NCBI GenBank assembly: GCA_000146465.1
Contig: CP001944.1
Length of the DNA: 64,000 nucleotides
Direction: 5' to 3' (one strand)
The stretch's first letter is position 1; the number at the start of each line of letters is the position of its first letter. Below the pieces are notes generated by a model. It searched no databases, had not been told where the DNA came from, and saw nothing but the letters and a program-made list of their open reading frames with translations. Made by a program: the position numbers and the translations under genes. Shown here piece after piece: positions 1,740-62,845 of this stretch.

Positions 1740-2089
1740 CTCTCTTCGATCAAGCACCTTGATGGTGAAAATTTTTGGATCTTTTTGTTTTAGAAATCCT
1801 TTCAGATCTCAGCCCCTTTGGGGACTCCAATCACCTTGAGGTACTAATGTCATTGTTCGGCATCATGATAGATAGATAAATAAAGAAGATTAGATTCCTA
1901 TCATGCTTCATTTAGATTTGACTTTTAAATTAAGCGGTTTCCTTGATATGTTTGACGTTTTCTGACTTTATTGGAAGGTAACCTGCAAAATGCCCTTAAT
2001 TTACTATTGATGGAAATCGAATGTTGTTCGCGGGCTTTCCCTGCTGGTTAGGACACTAGTAATTACTTATTTCCGACAGCCATAAGTAC

Positions 2090-2830
2090 CGAGATATGAG
2101 CTCCAAGAGACTCTTGCGAGTGGGTCAACATCGAAAATAAAGAGCTCTGAAGTTTCTGGAGACAAGGAGTATGCTGTCAAGATGATAAGAAAAGAAGACA
2201 TTCCTTTGAAGCTCTTTTTGAGAGAAGTCAAAATGCATAGATTGATGAAACATCCAAATATAGTTGAATTTGTTGACTCGTACGAAGACTAGGATGGATG
2301 TTTTGTTGTAATAAGGTTAGGATGCCAGGAGATGGGGAGCATAATCCAGGCGGGTGTAGGATTGAGCTCTGCCCTGGCCCATTTCTACTTCAAACAATTG
2401 ATTTCTGCAGCGAGGTATCTGCATGGAAAGGAAATATGTCATCGAGATGTCAAACCAGAGAACATGCTTATTGACGCAAGTGGAAACCTCTCGCTATCGG
2501 ATTTCGTCTTTTCAACCTTATTTATACAGAAGGAGAAAGAAGAAGACTTCGGTCGTTTGTAAAAGGTTTAGAGTATATGGCCCGAAGTTTTTGAGAGAGC
2601 TTGCAGATATGTGGTCCTGCGGAATAAGTCTTATTGTGTTTCTAACCGGCTCATATCCATGGGGCAAAGCATCTGGTCGGACAAGAAATTCTCTGGATTT
2701 ATATTGATGAAGGACTACGTCTAGGTACACAAAGGCATAGAAAACTCGGAAAAGAGATTTATAATGAAAATGGTGACTAAAGAAGGCAGCCGCTGGACTG
2801 GGCCGATAGCTCTGAAAGATCCATGACTTA
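2090..2830 (+). pseudogene. Decayed Ser/Thr protein kinase gene (CAMK-group, Chk1-like)
   Basis: Kinase subdomains I-XI are recognisable but split over three frames. Frame 1 gives YELQETLASGSTSKI...EYAVKMIRK...HPNIVEFVDSYED then an in-frame TAG near 2290. Frame 1 continues ...YLHGKEICHRDVKPENMLIDASGNLSLSDFV with DFG changed to DFV. Frame 2 (about 2560-2700) gives DMWSCGISLIVFLTGSYPW, subdomain IX. Frame 3 (about 2751-2826) gives a subdomain XI-like FIMKMV..R.T...L.DP. There is no initiator ATG at the head and the Gly loop is degenerate. Confidence 0.6.
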
Positions 2831-21877: not shown

Positions 21878-21919
21878 TTCTTGGGTCTCAGGGATCGGGT
21901 GTTTTCATTTGGTGAGAGG

Positions 21920-22303
21920 CTAGAAGCAGGCTTTGTGGATCTCATCAAATTTGTCGTCCAGAGATTGGCTTTTGAAGACTCCCTCCTCCAGTGAGGATGA
22001 TATAAGGGCTGCAGCAAACACACAGTGGATTCTTTCCAGAAATGGACGAGGATTTCTTTTGGAATGGATAAACAGTGATTTGTATCCAGAAGGCATCATA
22101 TACACACTTATCCTCAGGTTGCCGTGTCTTTCCAGGCAGTCGAAGTAATTGGAGTTTGTGGATAGTGTTTTCCAGCCCAGTGTGTCTATTGATCCGTAGA
22201 TCAGAATGATGAGTCTGTAGTATTCCTCATTGCTTGTTCTACCATACATTCTTTGGTAAACAATGTCATTCTTCTCTGAGATTATGACCAAAAGCTCTCC
22301 CAT
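21920..22303 (-). CDS. TRAPP complex small subunit (Bet5/sedlin longin-like family)
   Basis: The internal ATG at 22303 is preceded by ggaaaccc. The longer ORF-track version would overlap the tubulin 5' region. The protein is about 128 aa with a weak sedlin/Bet5-like pattern. Confidence 0.45.
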   Translation of the reverse strand: MGELLVIISEKNDIVYQRMYGRTSNEEYYRLIILIYGSIDTLGWKTLSTNSNYFDCLERHGNLRISVYMMPSGYKSLFIHSKRNPRPFLERIHCVFAAALISSSLEEGVFKSQSLDDKFDEIHKACF

Positions 22304-22448
22304 GGGTTTCCAGGTTCTGTTTAGTTTCTCACAGGAGCATCCTTGGTTTGTTGGAAGAAGAAGGTAACAGGAAAAAGAAGCCACAGACATGTGGAAAGCT
22401 AGAAGTATTGCTGTGTGTGGAGAAGACTGGCCAGGTTTTATTTGAAGG

Positions 22449-22460
22449 AAAAATTTGCCC
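22449..22460 (+). promoter_or_regulatory. AAAAATTTGCCC promoter-like motif upstream of beta-tubulin
   Basis: tttgaaggaaaaatttgcccttcaaATG is almost identical to the RPS14 upstream 28-mer tttgagaaaaaatttgcccttcgagATG. Confidence 0.45.
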
Positions 22461-22465
22461 TTCAA

Positions 22466-40756: not shown

Positions 40757-42457
40757 ATGAAGTATAAGGAGGAGACTCCGAGCTACATGTACTCAGAGAT
40801 AGAAGGGACTGAAGAAGAAATAATTAGTCTTATGGATGAGTCTGAGGAAATCAACCCTTCTCAGGAAAGAGAGATGAGAGGAATGATAGGAGACTTCGAG
40901 TACATAGAAAACAAATGGATAGGAAATTACCGATTTATAAGGCAGCTGGGAACTGGAAGTAGTAGCAAGGTTGTGCTTGGATGCGATCCACAAAGCGGGG
41001 AAAAGGTTGCAATCAAAATAATTCCCAAAAGGATGAATGGCACGGAGACTAGCGAGGTTGAGATGAGATGCGACCAGAGGATATTCAGAGAAGTTATTAT
41101 ATCATCTGTGGTAAATCATCCGCATATTGTTCGGTTGAAGAACTTTCTGTATAGCCCTACACACTACTTTCTAATATTCGAGTATGTGAAAGGAAGGCAG
41201 TTGTACGATATTATCATTAGTAACGGGCCTCTGAAGGAGAAGGAGGGGCAGAGGTACTTCAGGCAGTTACTTTCTGCAGTTGACTACATCCATAAGAATT
41301 CGATTGTCCACAGAGACCTGAAGATAGAAAACATCCTGATTGACGACAACGACAATGTCAAGCTGATCGACTTTGGACTATCGAATTTTTACGACAACAA
41401 AACCCTGCTGAACACATTCTGTGGAAGTCTGTACTTTGCAGCGCCAGAGCTTCTTCAGGGGCAGAGATACTGTGGACCAGAGATAGACATCTGGAGTCTG
41501 GGGGTTGTTCTATATGCGACTCTGTGCGGATGTGTTCCATTTGATGACGAAAATGTTCAGGGACTCCAGGAAAAGATAAAGGATGGAGACTTCAAGTTCT
41601 GCAAGACGATTTCAAGAGAGGCTCAGGAGCTAATCCGAGGGATGATTGTTGCACAGCCATCCTCTAGAATGGGGCTTGACCAAGTGATTGGAAGCGAATG
41701 GGTAAACGGAGATCAAAAAGGCAGAATCAACAGCTATACAGCAAAGAGATATCCAATAATGAAGATCAACGAGAGGTACATAGAGTTGTTGTCGAGAGCA
41801 ATCCGGTTCCAGTTCCCCAACATTGAAAGAGAGATTAGAAGATTCCACAGAATATGCAAGGAAGACATGGGGACTTTAGAGCAGATCTATTGGTCGAGAA
41901 GGCCTGTGGTGTCTCTCTATTATCTTGTTTCTGAGAACCTTGGAGAAGACAACGAAAACAGAATCTACGAAGAAGAAGATGAGACAGAACTGCCACAGGG
42001 GCAACCAGAAGCCATCCATGACTTTGTAAGGTTTATATTTTCTGGAGAGAGAACCTGTACTCGAAAACACGTTAAAAAGGAGGTGCTTCTGGAATCTGCA
42101 AGCCAAGACACCCTGGTGTCCCTGAAGGGAAAGGACAACGGGCTTCCACGAATCAGACAGACATACTTGAAGGGGTTCTTCAGGGGGATAAGGGTAAAGC
42201 ACATCGGAAGCCACAATGCACTCAAAAAGATACTCCTTGACATATTCAATGCAAATAGTATTATCTACGAAGTTACCGATAAGAGCTACTTTTGCTCTGC
42301 ATACTACGAGGATCTGGAATGTCTTTTCAAGGTATCGATGTATTTTAATGTGCTTCTTAACGAATATTATCTTACTGTGACACCTCTGAACAGCGAGAAG
42401 AAGCTTTTTAAGAATGTATATGAATGGATTTCCTCTGGATTGAGGAATAGAACGTGA
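40757..42457 (+). CDS. CAMK-group Ser/Thr protein kinase (SNF1/KIN1/MARK-like)
   Basis: ORF-track start is TTG. The first ATG is at 40757. LGTGSSSKVVLG, VAIKII, HRDLKIENILID, DFGLSNF, CGSLYFAAPE, DIWSLGVVLY. The C-terminal extension of about 250 aa could be a KA1-like tail. Confidence 0.8.
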   Translation: MKYKEETPSYMYSEIEGTEEEIISLMDESEEINPSQEREMRGMIGDFEYIENKWIGNYRFIRQLGTGSSSKVVLGCDPQSGEKVAIKIIPKRMNGTETSEVEMRCDQRIFREVIISSVVNHPHIVRLKNFLYSPTHYFLIFEYVKGRQLYDIIISNGPLKEKEGQRYFRQLLSAVDYIHKNSIVHRDLKIENILIDDNDNVKLIDFGLSNFYDNKTLLNTFCGSLYFAAPELLQGQRYCGPEIDIWSLGVVLYATLCGCVPFDDENVQGLQEKIKDGDFKFCKTISREAQELIRGMIVAQPSSRMGLDQVIGSEWVNGDQKGRINSYTAKRYPIMKINERYIELLSRAIRFQFPNIEREIRRFHRICKEDMGTLEQIYWSRRPVVSLYYLVSENLGEDNENRIYEEEDETELPQGQPEAIHDFVRFIFSGERTCTRKHVKKEVLLESASQDTLVSLKGKDNGLPRIRQTYLKGFFRGIRVKHIGSHNALKKILLDIFNANSIIYEVTDKSYFCSAYYEDLECLFKVSMYFNVLLNEYYLTVTPLNSEKKLFKNVYEWISSGLRNRT

Positions 42458-42769
42458 AATAAATTGTTAACTTTTGGTTGGGTGCAAGAGCAGCATATGT
42501 CATTGCTCCGTGATTTCCAAGACATTGTGGCTGAAACTAATAATTGCGGTAGATATTTTCTTGTTTGGAATTACCCTGGATCCGTGGCTAATACCATGGA
42601 TTCCAAAAGAGCCAGAATTGCTCCCTTGAGCCTGATGGTTCCAAGGTTCGTAGATGGCTACATTTTGATGGGATGTCTTCTTTCTATGATGTTTTCTGTT
42701 TCAAGGCTGTTTTAAGCTGTTTTGGAATCTCTATAAACAGAAACGGCTTTCGGTCCATACCAAGGCCAG

Positions 42770-44488
42770 ATGACTCCTATTTGGTTATTTCTAGGATGTG
42801 CTCTCTGTTCTCTTGAAAGTGACATGCTGAGATACACAAACAAATTCAGGAAGGAGCACAACATGGAGGAACTATACAACCTACCTTCCTTGCAGAAGGC
42901 TGCGGATCTGCAAGTGCTGCACATGTGTAAGAAATCCAAGCTTACACATGACGGACCAAGCGGAGAAGGATTTAACCTTGCAGGAAGGTTGAAAAAGTTT
43001 GATTTTGTCGGACTCAACATAGGAGAGAATATAGCTAAGCAAGAGAATGATGACTATAAGGAGGTGGTTAAACTTTGGATGAAGTCTGAAGAGCATAGAA
43101 ACAACATTCTCGGAGACTATGTATACTCTGGGGTTTCCACATGTATTGGGAAGGATGGGAACAGATATTGGGCCCAGGTCTTCGGGAAAGACATCAGTAA
43201 CACAAAAATTGCCAAGATGAGGAATGAGGGGAAGCCACTGATTTGCCTGGAGTGCAATATGAAAGATGAAGACAAATCGGATAGAGAAAGAAAAACACAT
43301 GAAGAAGGAGAAGACCTCGGAGTCGGAGACTACATAATGGTGGTTCCTCCGGAGTATGGAAAAGAACCAGAAAAAAGAGAAGGATCTTTTGGAGGAGTTT
43401 ATGAAGATGCTCGGAATGAAAATGTTGGTTCTATCGAAACTCAGCCGGATGTAGAGAGTCCTAGCAGAGGAGGAAAACGGATACCTGAAATAAGCTTAGG
43501 TAGAAAGAGGTATCCGGGACAGAACATTGTTCGAAGACCTAAGTATTCGTCCTCCCACGAGCGCAATACTAGGAAGGAGGAAAGAGAATTGTTAAGTCTA
43601 GGAGATTATCTTATTCCACCACAGAGCGAAAGCACCGAGCATCCAAAAACTAGCACTTCGACTTCAGAGAGTTTGTATTCAACAACGACTCAAAAAACAG
43701 TCTCCACCGTCACTCCAAGCACCAGCATCCGAACCTCAACAATACCAATCTTCACACTTGTATTCAAGGACTCGGGAAATTCCACTGTGGTTCCTGCACT
43801 TCAATCTTTGATTGATGCAATCAAAGGAACATCTTCTCAGGAGAAGAGTAGCAGTAGCAAGACTGTCTTCTCTGTGGGGTCGACACTTTATTCTACTTCG
43901 GGGATAAGCACTTTCAGTTCAAGCATTCAGTCTCCTTTGTCTAGTACTACACAAACATCCTCATCTTCACTAAGCAGCAAAGAAGCAATATCCACAGTTA
44001 CAGTCACTTCAACCGCTCGTGAGTCCGTCACAGTGTATCTCCCCAAATACCAGATAACGACAACGACAACGACCGTGCCATCGGAAAGAAAGGATTCCAA
44101 GGCCCCACAGAACAGAGATGGGTCTTTCAACCAGGGAGGTCTAAGGATTGAGTCCCCAAAGCATCTGGAGTTCATTGGGGGAGCTGGAAGCGGAGGAAGC
44201 ATAAGCCCTGTTGTAAAGTTGGATGACAGACATAATGCAGGACAAAACGAAAAGGAAAATGACTCTGGCAACGAGGGAGGATGCAAGGAAGGATACAACA
44301 ACGACGGAAGCTGTATACTTTCCAAGTCGCTGGATGATTTGAAGCTCAAGGATACCCTCGAGAATCTGGTTCGAAAGGGAAAGATCCATCTTCATATTCT
44401 GTCGGACGAAGACTGCGGAGACAAGGAGGAATGTTATGAAAGCAAAAATAGAGTTGACATAGGAATTCCGTTTTCTTATAAACTTTAA
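42770..44488 (+). CDS. Secreted CAP/SCP/PR-1 superfamily protein with mucin-like Ser/Thr-rich stalk and Cys-containing C-terminal region
   Basis: ATG at 42770. Predicted signal peptide MTPIWLFLGCALCSLES. The CAP motifs are HN...(CAP3-like), GENIA (CAP4), W.KSEEHRNNIL and RYWAQVFG (CAP1/2-like). Then comes an acidic linker, then about 150 aa of S/T-rich low complexity including TTTTT encoded by (ACGACA)3, then a C-terminal Cys-containing segment. Confidence 0.7.
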   Translation: MTPIWLFLGCALCSLESDMLRYTNKFRKEHNMEELYNLPSLQKAADLQVLHMCKKSKLTHDGPSGEGFNLAGRLKKFDFVGLNIGENIAKQENDDYKEVVKLWMKSEEHRNNILGDYVYSGVSTCIGKDGNRYWAQVFGKDISNTKIAKMRNEGKPLICLECNMKDEDKSDRERKTHEEGEDLGVGDYIMVVPPEYGKEPEKREGSFGGVYEDARNENVGSIETQPDVESPSRGGKRIPEISLGRKRYPGQNIVRRPKYSSSHERNTRKEERELLSLGDYLIPPQSESTEHPKTSTSTSESLYSTTTQKTVSTVTPSTSIRTSTIPIFTLVFKDSGNSTVVPALQSLIDAIKGTSSQEKSSSSKTVFSVGSTLYSTSGISTFSSSIQSPLSSTTQTSSSSLSSKEAISTVTVTSTARESVTVYLPKYQITTTTTTVPSERKDSKAPQNRDGSFNQGGLRIESPKHLEFIGGAGSGGSISPVVKLDDRHNAGQNEKENDSGNEGGCKEGYNNDGSCILSKSLDDLKLKDTLENLVRKGKIHLHILSDEDCGDKEECYESKNRVDIGIPFSYKL

Positions 44489-44552: not shown

Positions 44553-46199
44553 CTATTCCAACACCAGCCCCAAGTCGCGGATGAAGCCATACAGAACTAT
44601 CAAGAATGCGTCTTCCTGTGCTTTCAGGGTCTTTATGTCCTGATTTTGGATCCAGAACACAACGTCAATATTTATCCCTATTGAGGAGTTGTTCTTCAAG
44701 TCATACCCGTACACACTAAACTTTCCTGTGTATACATTAGGATCCGAGGCCACCTCCTTTTCGATTGCAGAGTTCAGCTCCGCCATCTTGTCTTTAAATT
44801 CCAGAGAGTTTAAAAATGTAAACTTAAACTGTTTCAGTGACGTCCTTGCCTTTCTGAGGTTGACTATGGTCTTGTCCATGATCTTGGCATTGGGAATCAC
44901 TGTGACTTTCTTGTCAACTACAAACGAGGTGTAGAGAAGGCCCATGTCGTACACCTTGTGAAGGTGGCCGTCTATAAGGATTTTGTCTCCAACATCAAAT
45001 GTCTTGACGAGAAATATGAACACCAGAGACCTGAACATCTCTGTGAGAATCGAAGCAAAGATCGCATTGAGGGAAAGGAGTGTACCAAACTGGATGGGGA
45101 TGAAGTTGACAAAATTAACCTCACTCTCCACTATTGGAATGGTGGCCGAAATCCCAAACGGAATGAGTATGCAGGAGAGAACAATGTCCAACTTCTCGAC
45201 AATCGTGACCTTCTGAGCCATTCCCATAGTGATTCTCTTATCCTCGTTTAGAATGTCCTGATACACAAGGACAAAGCTACTTCTTGTCACCCTGCCATCC
45301 CCGTATATATCGAAGCGCTCAAATATCTTTCGTGCACTATCGGTTCCAAAGAAGTATTCGAGGGTCTGAATGTCAACAGTATCCTTTTCCGGAGAAACTG
45401 TCTTGAATACAAGACTTCCCCAGCTCTCGACATCTGGATCCGACTCCATCTTCTTGCCAGTTATTCTGTTCAGCTCCTCGAGCATCTTCATGTCCTCATA
45501 GTTCTTCTGGATTCTATCCTCATAGTTTTCAAAGAGCATCTTGTAGTTTATCCTCTCCATAAGAATGGTCTTTGCCAGAATTATCCCAAGAAACATAGAG
45601 CTTGCAAGAAGAAGCCTGCTTAGTTTGTCTATAAATGGAGTCTTTGTCTCAACTAGCCTGGCAGAAGAGCTTCCTGACTCCCCAGGATGGGTCTCTTCCT
45701 TTGGTAGCTCTGCGTTCCCCTCTTCGCCAGTCCTGGCACTCTCTCCGTCTATGATCTCTGTTCCATGGTTGTAGCTTCCCATGACAAAAGAGAGAATCAA
45801 CAGTGTGAGAACAAGACTTATAAGCCATCCATTCCTTATTAAAGTGCTCTGAAGGAATCTTTGCTTCTCGTCAATCTTCTTGAGAGTGATCGAGAAGTAT
45901 GTCAGTATAAGCTCAAGCATAAACCAAATCATAATACCAATGAGAAGGCACAGAAGAAGTTTTTCGGTTGCCAATGGGGGCTGGGCCTTTCCATTAGGTT
46001 CTATCTTTGATAGAATAAACGAATAGTGGCATATGTATGCTAGGATCCCGGAAATAATGGATCCCCCAAGGTAGATAAGGATCCATACCGATGAGGGAGG
46101 ACTTGGATCGTCCACGTGTCTCTTCCCCGACGGCTTCTTCTCCACAAAGAAGTCGGACTCCTCAACCTGCTGTATGCTTTCAATTTTCTCGGTTCGCAT
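44553..46199 (-). CDS. MscS-like mechanosensitive ion channel (Msy1/Msy2-type, with EF-hand-like loop)
   Basis: ATG at 46199. Multiple N-terminal TM helices. The MscS beta-domain core is LVKTFDVGDKILIDGHLHKVYDMGLLYTSFVVDKKVTVIPNAKIM. An EF-hand-like loop DIYGDGRVTRSS lies upstream. Confidence 0.8.
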   Translation of the reverse strand: MRTEKIESIQQVEESDFFVEKKPSGKRHVDDPSPPSSVWILIYLGGSIISGILAYICHYSFILSKIEPNGKAQPPLATEKLLLCLLIGIMIWFMLELILTYFSITLKKIDEKQRFLQSTLIRNGWLISLVLTLLILSFVMGSYNHGTEIIDGESARTGEEGNAELPKEETHPGESGSSSARLVETKTPFIDKLSRLLLASSMFLGIILAKTILMERINYKMLFENYEDRIQKNYEDMKMLEELNRITGKKMESDPDVESWGSLVFKTVSPEKDTVDIQTLEYFFGTDSARKIFERFDIYGDGRVTRSSFVLVYQDILNEDKRITMGMAQKVTIVEKLDIVLSCILIPFGISATIPIVESEVNFVNFIPIQFGTLLSLNAIFASILTEMFRSLVFIFLVKTFDVGDKILIDGHLHKVYDMGLLYTSFVVDKKVTVIPNAKIMDKTIVNLRKARTSLKQFKFTFLNSLEFKDKMAELNSAIEKEVASDPNVYTGKFSVYGYDLKNNSSIGINIDVVFWIQNQDIKTLKAQEDAFLIVLYGFIRDLGLVLE

Positions 46200-53985: not shown

Positions 53986-54057
53986 TGCTAGATCCCGGGT
54001 TCGAACCGGGGACACCTAGATCTTCAGTCTAGTGCTCTTCCACTGAGCTAATCCAGC
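53986..54057 (-). tRNA. tRNA-Phe (anticodon GAA)
   Basis: Minus-strand sequence GCTGGATTAGCTCAGTGGAAGAGCACTAGACTGAAGATCTAGGTGTCCCCGGTTCGAACCCGGGATCTAGCA folds into a full cloverleaf. It has a 7-bp acceptor stem with one G-U pair, D stem GCTC/GAGC, anticodon stem CTAGA/TCTAG with loop CTGAAGA (U33, GAA, purine-37), and T stem CCCGG/CCGGG with loop TTCGAAC. The discriminator is A. Confidence 0.85.
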
Positions 54058-62330: not shown

Positions 62331-62845
62331 TCTTCGCTGGGGTATGTCCATAAATTCACGGCCTGCAAGAATTAGACTTGCCACAGAATTTTATATCTTT
62401 AATAATATTAAAACTTTAGGTAAATGCCTTGGTCTTGGTAAGACCATTTTTGCAATTTATCTACTTACATTTGTATTAATAAAAAGGAGAAATTCAGGAA
62501 GAAAACGAAATAAAGCGTAGAAGGCCCATTTAATACCAGGCATTACTTGTATCGGCATAGACATCCATGGGATCCGCTTTTTGAGCACTTGGAATCTTCT
62601 TTTCTGTCCGAATCCGAGCACCTACACTTTTCCATCTCTCCCGATGAGCAGGGGGGACATTTGCATGAGTTATCAACGCATTCACTGTTCTTACAAGTCT
62701 TATTTCCCTTCATAGAGCTTTGTTTTTTTGTCTATAAAAGCTTTCAGATGACCATTGAAACAACTCCAACTCATTTCGATAGCTGTCATTATGAATGGTG
62801 CCATCTGACAAATGATTGTGGTCTTCCACTACACCCAAGCTCAGG

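Follow-up and report, generated by a model that had tools for sequence, protein, structure and literature searches.

We analysed a 64,000-nucleotide stretch of DNA (hereafter the window; NCBI GenBank assembly GCA_000146465.1, contig CP001944.1), in which one protein-coding gene and the spacer that precedes it are of particular concern. The open reading frame (ORF) at 42770..44488 (+) encodes a protein of 572 amino acids (aa) bearing a CAP domain at the N-terminus and here called the CAP protein, and the spacer upstream of it extends over 42458..42769. According to our overall reading, to which we assign a probability of roughly 0.6, the gene is the ortholog of Encephalitozoon cuniculi ECU03_0990 and codes for a secreted spore-stage CAP protein, and its spacer is composite, containing an H/ACA-type small nucleolar RNA (snoRNA) together with a promoter of ordinary length. 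We are largely confident that the spacer element is real as a snoRNA, and it is potentially the only new item at the locus, since the CAP protein has been known as a family from 2013 onward; the snoRNA, in turn, would be a new addition to a very familiar class. The named best matches of the window proteins are from Encephalitozoon, and the window has approximately 43% G+C, a coding density of 86% and, under a crude ORF model, a median inter-ORF gap of 105 bp.

The snoRNA candidate is approximately 92 nt long (42574..42665, +) and is defined by DNA conservation, RNA folds, covariation and a covariance model. Ten loci were compared, namely the window and nine further loci (L001–L009), where the window and L001–L005 constitute the Encephalitozoon group and L001 is E. 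cuniculi. Between species whose CAP proteins are only 58–60% identical, the 3' two-thirds of the spacer remain approximately 90% identical in DNA, with long invariant blocks. Orthologous copies of the candidate are located at L001 3805-3897, L002 3806-3897, L003 2803-2896, L004 2803-2896, L005 2802-2895, L006 2815-2898, L007 2822-2906, L008 2832-2922 and L009 2831-2922. In the window, a 5' hairpin that has no pocket (42577-42605) is followed by the hinge AAAAGA (42605-42610) and by a 3' hairpin composed of a lower stem (42610-42614 paired with 42655-42659), an upper stem (42624-42646) and the two pocket strands between them, TTGCTC (42618-42623), which is invariant, and TTCGT (42647-42651), which reads TTCRT across species. 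The ACA box (42660-42662) stands 13 nt from the upper stem and directly 3' of the lower stem in nine of the ten species, the remaining one (L006) having AAA. In box H/ACA snoRNAs the pocket is expected some 14–16 nt 5' of the ACA, and the ACA itself 3 nt from the end of the RNA.

In 9 of 10 species, minimum free energy folding of the single sequence arrives at one common two-hairpin shape, the 3' hairpin being interrupted by a large internal loop. RNAalifold recovers this 3' hairpin with compensatory pairs, for example at column 43/85, where five species have A-U and five have G-C. When the full structure is placed on the ten-species alignment, 83.5% of the cells are paired, as compared with 22–54% when the partners are slid by 1–3 columns. 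Compensatory double changes occur at ten pairs, and none of 500 shuffles reaches the observed covariation score. A covariance model matched all ten orthologous loci with E values from 1e-13 to 1e-21. The parts of the RNA that are conserved are the unpaired loop strands, the invariant UUGCUC and UUCRU, and such conservation is a guide-RNA signature.

From these two strands the target 5'-AYGAA-U-N-GAGCA-3' was predicted prior to any inspection of ribosomal RNA (rRNA). The ribosomal DNA sample consists of two environmental microsporidian contigs (L021 418-4631, and L026), which were found through a small-subunit (SSU) primer sequence. Both contain the target motif once per large-subunit (LSU) rRNA, in the context GUGACGCGC-AUGAA-U-G-GAGCA-ACGAGAUUCC (L021 1979-1990; L026); UUGCUC and UUCRU, the two strands of the pocket, are complementary to 5'-AUGAA-U-G-GAGCAA-3'. 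The expected number of such motifs is 6e-4 per LSU, and 8 of 20000 shuffles contained a match. The target U falls at position 2320 of the Rfam eukaryotic LSU model, where the helix-69 uridines are at 2264, 2266, 2270 and 2272. The yeast helix-69 positions are 2264 and 2266, from a yeast table, and 2258 and 2260, which we take to be the others; comparison of the two numberings gives an offset of 6, and the target therefore corresponds to yeast U2314. The eukaryotic consensus at this site is GGAUUAAC and the microsporidian contigs have GGAGCAAC, the guide being complementary to the microsporidian version; a search of spurious rRNA-ORF peptides across eukaryotes found the microsporidian variant (EWSNEI) in 4 of 120, the remainder being mostly generic. 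The yeast table lists 25S Ψ2314 as guided by snR86 (PMC5699541). On complementarity, the snoRNA candidate is thus predicted to direct the conversion of U to Ψ in LSU rRNA at the position equivalent to yeast 25S Ψ2314. The Encephalitozoon LSU rRNA would then read AUGAAUGGAGCAA at the target site, and the modified U would lie within GCGCAUGAAUGGAGCAACG. As a separate observation on the two contigs, their gene order is LSU, SSU (Rfam microsporidia model) and 5S, which is the Nosema-type reversed arrangement as opposed to SSU, LSU.

The same covariance model gave weak matches at two Nosema-clade loci (E values of 0.13 and 1.1), at L031 3849-3937 in Nosema granulosis and at L032 3856-3920, both at the same place and on the same strand just 5' of the CAP gene. 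Each of these candidates is a single hairpin, CCAG...CUGG, with an ACA after it. In the loop, the 3' strand UUCAUGC complements GCAUGAA perfectly over 7 bp, and the 5' strand pairs, one mismatch aside, with GAG.AA. From UUUCUC and UUUUCUU, the guide strands in Nosema, a GAGAAA-like target or wobble pairing is predicted. The matches suggest that the linkage of snoRNA and CAP gene is conserved in this clade and that the RNA there has been reduced to one hairpin.

Whether this RNA has escaped previous inventories is less certain. Belkorchia et al. (2017) validated 18 non-coding RNAs (ncRNAs) of E. cuniculi, and the main text of their paper counts five H/ACA RNAs among them: ACA10/snR37, said to have no 3' pocket, U65/snR34, ACA27/snR42, U19/snR191, and an orphan on chromosome II (PMC5499648). 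No guide for the Ψ2314-equivalent site is named in that main text. The E. cuniculi copy of our candidate is on chromosome III (L001 3805-3897, i.e., AL590443.1 ~120788-120880). Searching by homology, Canzler et al. (2018) did not find any H/ACA family in Microsporidia. We give even odds that the candidate is unlisted in the published inventory. The more complete proposition, that it is a miniature H/ACA snoRNA outside that inventory and a functional equivalent of snR86, that the guide has co-evolved with the GGAGCAAC-for-GGAUUAAC rRNA variant, and that its physical linkage to the CAP gene has persisted in Encephalitozoon, in Ordospora and as far as the Nosema clade, in which the RNA seems reduced to one hairpin, is put forward tentatively, with somewhat less than even odds. 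If real and unlisted, the spacer RNA would enlarge the snoRNA repertoire, regarded as "minimal", of those eukaryotes whose genomes are the most reduced; it would also predict a specific conserved pseudouridine in microsporidian LSU rRNA and would make the "long" intergenic spacers of compact genomes a good hunting ground for missed RNA genes.

The rest of the spacer can be read from 5' to 3' as a compact arrangement of signals. The upstream gene encodes a Ser/Thr kinase whose TGA stop codon runs directly into AATAAA, which is probably a poly(A) signal (TGAAATAAA; 42455..42463, +, direct reading); this stop/poly(A) motif, TGAAATAAATTGTTAA, is kept in the window and L001–L005 and has diverged in L006, L007 and Ordospora. 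Such an arrangement is in keeping with a compact genome in which the poly(A) signal sits right at the stop codon. After a variable stretch comes the TATA-like GATATTTT (42552..42559, +), and a CCC motif lies at 42574-42576. GATATTTT is kept in the Encephalitozoon-group spacers, present as variants in L006 and L007 and absent in Ordospora, and the CCC is invariant in all ten species. The 2017 inventory reports TATA-like and CCC/GGG signals for each of the 18 E. cuniculi ncRNAs (PMC5499648), and by analogy with that layout GATATTTT and CCC may mark the promoter and start of the snoRNA candidate. Downstream of the RNA, Tandem Repeats Finder (TRF) detected three TGTTTY repeats spaced by 10–11 bp (TGTTTCAAGGCTGTTTTAAGCTGTTTT; 42697..42723, +), whose TGTTT cores are kept in 10 of 10 species; the triple is unique in the window and did not occur in any of 100 shuffles. 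It may be a cis-regulatory, possibly stage-specific, element of the CAP gene, or alternatively the 3' flank of the snoRNA. The TGTTTY motif is near, and not identical to, forkhead sites. Finally, a TATAAA box (42732..42737, +) is located 38 bp 5' of the ATG, with TATAA invariant in 10 of 10 species and the sixth base G in L007, and from its position we infer that it is the core promoter of the CAP gene.

This anatomy bears on what a previous, sequence-only reading had made of the spacer. Its length of 312 bp was given correctly; described as long for this genome, it ranks 11th of 54 gaps under the crude ORF model and is longish without being exceptional. The spacer measures 311–319 bp in the six Encephalitozoon-group genomes and 222–281 bp in the more distant ones. 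The suggestion, drawn from this length, of a strong stage-specific promoter does not hold, as approximately 92 bp belong to a separate structured RNA gene. The embedded RNA gene explains the spacer length, and the upstream region left to the CAP gene itself is approximately 104 bp, close to the median gap of the window.

Other interpretations of the spacer were tried and rejected. A small ORF (42464..42715, 83 aa) is broken by 1-bp indels between species, and indels of this kind across the spacer rule out a coding function. Although ACAGAAACGGCTTTCGG resembles the CR-V element of RNase P/MRP RNA, this stretch is not kept in Ordospora and L007 (only TATAA is), and there was no Rfam P/MRP match at E values up to 10. 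A U1, U4 or U5 small nuclear RNA or a box C/D snoRNA was discarded because the spacer has no ACUUACC, no conserved U5 loop and no in-register C/D boxes. An AUUUUGA resembling an Sm site is better read as the ACA followed by a T-rich tail. Rfam scans of the spacer returned no family even at E values up to 10, and a scan for bacterial promoters and terminators, which is irrelevant here, was empty.

As for the CAP protein, its first 14 residues (MTPIWLFLGCALCS; 42770..42811, +) form a signal-peptide-like leader, which is the hydrophobicity peak of the 572-aa protein and is kept in the orthologs with the pattern xWLxLGCxxCSLES. A hydrophobicity and composition scan of the 572 aa revealed neither a second transmembrane-like segment nor a hydrophobic C-terminus, and therefore neither a transmembrane nor a glycosylphosphatidylinositol (GPI) anchor is expected. 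In the published survey SignalP was positive for every microsporidian member of the CAP family (PMC3879972).

The CAP/SCP/PR-1 domain occupies aa 15-145 (42812..43204, +), as supported by Pfam, AlphaFold2, Foldseek and NCBIfam. Pfam PF00188 matches aa 20-138 over its full length (HMM positions 1-117 of 117; E=4.7e-16, 60.1 bits against a cutoff of 21.1), and the motifs GENIA, W.KSEEHRNNIL and RYWAQVFG are present. AlphaFold2, run on a family alignment of 20 sequences, gave predicted local distance difference test (pLDDT) values of 89–97 at aa 15-145 and below 50 for nearly all other residues, the exceptions being a helix at 340-353 (pLDDT ~62) and aa 500-540 (66–70). A Foldseek search of the PDB retrieved exclusively CAP structures, with a probability of 1.0 for more than 20 of them. 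The top three are bacterial, i.e., Bacillus anthracis 4ifa (E=1.7e-8), Borrelia BB0689 4d53 (TM-score 0.81) and Staphylococcus aureus SAV1118 4h0a; plant PR-1, GAPR-1, SmVAL4, snake CRISPs and yeast Pry1 (rank 18–19) come lower. When solved structures were searched by sequence, the only match was again bacterial 4ifa, with the single protein and with the family profile alike. The NCBIfam YkwD model TIGR02909 aligns end to end (4-125 of 127; E=3.8e-15), with 55.9 bits against a cutoff of 171, so that the CAP protein resembles this subfamily without being a member of it. A homology search with the CAP domain alone gave two matches and was uninformative. Among the cavity residues, H60 and H109 do not vary in 20 homologs, and E86 is conserved in at least 90% of them. 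The domain is thus a CAP alpha-beta-alpha fold of the compact bacterial (YkwD-like) type.

The remaining approximately 430 residues are mostly predicted to be disordered, with pLDDT below 50 for most of aa 146-499. A charged linker at aa 146-285 (43205..43624, +; assigned from composition, pLDDT <50) has up to 37% D+E and up to 30% K+R in 30-aa windows and evolves fast (41–46% identity within the genus), retaining the short conserved motifs YIMVV and LLSLGDYLIP. It is followed by a Ser/Thr-rich segment (aa 286-440; 43625..44089, +), delimited by composition, which holds a TVY motif and a conserved island that is not of low complexity (aa 322-353; 43733..43828, +) and contains the predicted helix 340-353. 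Ser and Thr make up 48% of the segment, or 54% without the island, and Pro accounts for approximately 7 of 155 residues (read by eye). The sole tandem repeat found by TRF in this region is an 18-bp (AACGAC)3 microsatellite (44056..44073, +; score 36, 100% matches), which encodes most of a six-Thr run at aa 430-435 (codons 44057-44074). The six-Thr expansion appears species-specific, because most aligned orthologs carry TTT or fewer at this site (L006 has MTTTI, Ordospora none). A stretch of Gly, Asn and charged residues then leads to a C-terminal module (aa 501-572; 44270..44485, +), which is private to the family and has the form C-x2-GYN-x-DG-x-C, an amphipathic helix LKD.LE.L.R.G..HLHI, C-x5-C and the terminal VDIGIPFSYKL. 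Its Cys 505, 515, 549 and 555 are invariant in an alignment of 12 sequences from Encephalitozoon and Ordospora. The terminal (V/I)DIGxP motif is also found at the extreme C-terminus of Nosema-clade members (P0012–P0016), and a TVY-type motif and an xFxFK...L..L island likewise recur beyond the genus. A profile of the module searched against 1.84 billion representative proteins retrieved only family members and two repetitive, probably spurious matches, and AlphaFold2 on the module alone gave a low-confidence model, with a pLDDT of 64 and a predicted TM-score of 0.32, which is too poor to serve in a fold comparison.

The CAP gene is the syntenic ortholog of E. cuniculi ECU03_0990 and a member of the microsporidian single-copy CAP family. 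Identity over the full length is 60% to E. hellem, 58% to E. romaleae, 58% to E. cuniculi (P0005, 100% of the length) and 35–36% to Ordospora; full-length orthologs are also present in several further Encephalitozoon-like assemblies, and relatives consisting of a CAP domain plus a tail occur in Nosema granulosis, Anncaliia and others. The gene order kinase, CAP, MscS-like (opposite strand) and 14-3-3 is retained in all nine of the fetched Encephalitozoon-like and Ordospora loci. Within the genus, identity is 90–92% for the CAP head (70% to Ordospora), 72–84% for the island, 71–75% for the C-terminal module and 27–46% for the linkers. According to Nakjang et al. (2013), the N-terminal CAP part of approximately 150 aa is most similar to bacterial, oomycete and Dictyostelium sequences and is a candidate for ancient horizontal transfer, the remainder is non-conserved and intrinsically disordered, and each taxon has one copy, the family being present in the last common microsporidian ancestor (PMC3879972). 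In the same work ECU03_0990 goes up from 24 h to 48 h after infection, as spore-wall and polar-tube genes do, the N. parisii ortholog NEPG_01805 rises when spores first appear, and a family member was detected in the spore proteome of T. hominis (PMC3879972). In the searchable literature beyond that paper we found no later study that names ECU03_0990 or NEPG_01805 or reports functional work on microsporidian CAP/SCP proteins. The convergent neighbour at 44553..46199 (-) encodes the MscS-like mechanosensitive channel, a family that is, like CAP, a candidate horizontal acquisition (Nakjang et al. 2013, PMC3879972). The two genes are adjacent in all Encephalitozoon and Ordospora loci, separated by one gene in N. 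granulosis (L031), and approximately 3.4 kb apart in L032.

These results uphold a good part of what the sequence-only reading had said of the protein. The ORF limits, the CAP domain with its motifs, the charged linker and the C-terminal Cys residues all agree with ours, the fold comparison that it proposed places the domain firmly among CAP structures, and the comparison of related species that it called for finds the CAP head and the C-terminal module constrained and the linkers divergent. Its signal peptide has a counterpart in the conserved leader and in the family-wide SignalP result. Other claims have to be modified or given up. The Ser/Thr tract, described as almost pure over approximately 150 residues, is less than half Ser and Thr and is broken by the island; a hexamer repeat does exist, and yet the supposed TTTTT encoded by (ACGACA)3 at 44050-44067 is the six-Thr run and (AACGAC)3 given above. 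A mucin-like stalk agrees with the composition, whereas the segment has no PTS repeats and little Pro, and Ser/Thr richness is missing from Ordospora. The architecture was considered unusual; it is that of the conserved single-copy family described in 2013, syntenic from Encephalitozoon to Ordospora, and because exactly this architecture is the published family, a CAP domain with a disordered tail is the rule for microsporidia. The analogy with sterol binding and immune modulation was based on eukaryotic CAPs, while the domain here is of the bacterial YkwD type by sequence and by its best fold matches. Of the spore-wall, polar-tube or secreted-effector hallmarks, the spore-stage link is in line with what has been published on orthologs (PMC3879972), and the host-effector side fits less well with a conserved CAP domain and sporogonial timing.

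In the mechanism that we propose, the protein would enter the secretory pathway during sporogony and its Ser/Thr segment might be O-mannosylated, the type of glycosylation on record for spore and polar-tube proteins of microsporidia. The C-terminal module, presumably disulfide-bonded and with its invariant end motif, would dock on or tether to another extracellular spore component, and the CAP head, the most constrained part, would bind a small ligand or a cation.

Several observations weigh against the overall reading. The hinge fits the H-box consensus ANANNA in several species (AAAAGA or AAAATA), and UAAAGA in E. cuniculi and CAAAGU in Ordospora do not strictly do so. The ribosomal sample includes no Encephalitozoon LSU, and one additional match to the target motif, which we take as chance, occurred in non-rRNA DNA among the 108 kb scanned. 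On the protein side, the short leader lacks a basic n-region; the second Glu position of the CAP cavity (E107/E108), whose equivalence was set by motifs and not by superposition, varies among E, K, T, A and P; and Ser/Thr richness recurs in many family members and is absent in Ordospora (maximum S+T in 60 aa of 0.27–0.33), and a glycosylated stalk is therefore not essential to the core function of the family. The imperfect hinge also lends something to the idea that the conserved spacer block is a DNA-level promoter or enhancer of the CAP gene and no RNA gene at all, an idea that gains further from the position of the block directly 5' of a stage-regulated gene and from the absence of an Rfam family at E values up to 10. 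It is difficult, however, to reconcile such a DNA element with compensatory changes that preserve three helices in a specific register, with G-U pairs that are tolerated on the + strand only (alignment read by eye), with conserved unpaired pocket strands that jointly match a single known LSU Ψ site, or with an ACA that immediately follows the 3' stem in 9 of 10 species. We consider a purely regulatory block to be improbable and retain the snoRNA.

Two alternatives concern the protein instead. An automated Logan gene call, P0001 (554 aa, 100% identical), begins at M19, a residue that is invariant in the ortholog alignment, and thereby loses the signal peptide; were M19 the true start, the product would be a non-secreted intracellular protein. 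This has very little to recommend it in view of the 18 codons before M19 (42770..42823), which are kept as protein (xWLxLGCxxCSLESD) in nine other species and because of which M1 is taken to be the start; the conserved TATAAA 38 bp 5' of M1 and the published family-wide SignalP result (PMC3879972) also oppose M19. A secreted protein might instead be a host-directed effector, exported to the parasitophorous vacuole or host cell, where its CAP domain would sequester sterols or lipids or modulate immunity in the manner of Pry1 and helminth VAL/ASP proteins. The leader and CAP fold, the fast evolution of the non-CAP regions and the speculation of Nakjang et al. on host interaction (PMC3879972) are in its favour, but a CAP head this conserved, at 90–92% within the genus and 70% to Ordospora, does not behave as a host-interface domain caught in an arms race would be expected to. 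By sequence the domain groups with bacterial YkwD-type CAPs, Pry1 reaching only rank 18–19 in fold, and the expression timing is that of sporogony genes, the protein being found in spores (PMC3879972). An effector role is accordingly rated unlikely, and it fits less well than a secreted spore component. The CAP protein represents no new kind of biology; it adds an ortholog to a family singled out in 2013 as deserving experiments. Its constrained parts, the CAP head and the family-private Cys-containing C-terminal module, would be the most suitable antigens or assay targets, and the Ser/Thr tract varies between lineages.

Elsewhere in the window, a tRNA-Phe (GAA) gene at 53986..54057 (-) was the sole Rfam/ARAGORN match at curated thresholds. 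Longer gaps in the crude ORF model are found at 1740..2517 (778 bp), 21878..22465 (588 bp) and 62331..62845 (515 bp), which might harbour short genes or additional small RNA genes.

Compared with the published microsporidian CAP family (ECU03_0990, NEPG_01805), the protein has the leader, the N-terminal CAP domain, the disordered remainder, the bacterial-like affinity and the gene neighbourhood in common, and nothing essential differs. In the published account, similarity beyond the CAP domain was detected only between close species (PMC3879972), whereas here the C-terminal ~70 aa, the island and the TVY motif are kept beyond the genus and DIGxP extends to the Nosema clade. With bacterial YkwD/SCP-like proteins (4ifa, 4d53, 4h0a; TIGR02909) it shares a compact CAP core of approximately 125 aa and the motifs H...GENIA...W..S..HR.NIL, and they are its best sequence and fold matches. 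Those proteins have neither the long Ser/Thr-rich tail nor the Cys module, and the protein described here belongs to a eukaryotic secretory context. Eukaryotic CAPs such as plant PR-1, GAPR-1, Pry1 and helminth VAL/ASP, which are typically secreted, have the same alpha-beta-alpha sandwich (Foldseek E values from 7e-6 to 5e-3), but none of their structures was matched by sequence and their fold scores are lower than the bacterial ones; moreover, in the CAP protein the position expected for the second Glu of the tetrad varies and a sterol-binding loop was not identifiable. Yeast Pry proteins also bear Ser/Thr-rich regions. O-mannosylated spore proteins, i.e., PTP1 and spore-wall proteins, are similar to the CAP protein in having a leader, signal-peptide-like in the CAP protein, Ser/Thr-rich low complexity, Cys residues, no GPI or transmembrane anchor and, through its orthologs, expression at the sporogony stage. 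The CAP protein has no sequence similarity to them, no Pro-rich repeats and, in contrast, a globular CAP head.

With regard to the RNA, the snoRNA candidate is predicted to act on the same uridine as yeast snR86, and presumably on the equivalent of the one served in human by SNORA48/ACA48. It is like the H/ACA guides of the yeast 25S Ψ2314 site in that its 3' hairpin holds a bipartite pocket (5 + 6 bp) and its stem is followed by an ACA. It differs from snR86, which is approximately 1 kb long, in its size of approximately 92 nt, in sharing no sequence homology with it and in the 5' hairpin that carries no pocket, and the Nosema-clade candidates depart further from the yeast RNA in being apparently single-hairpin.

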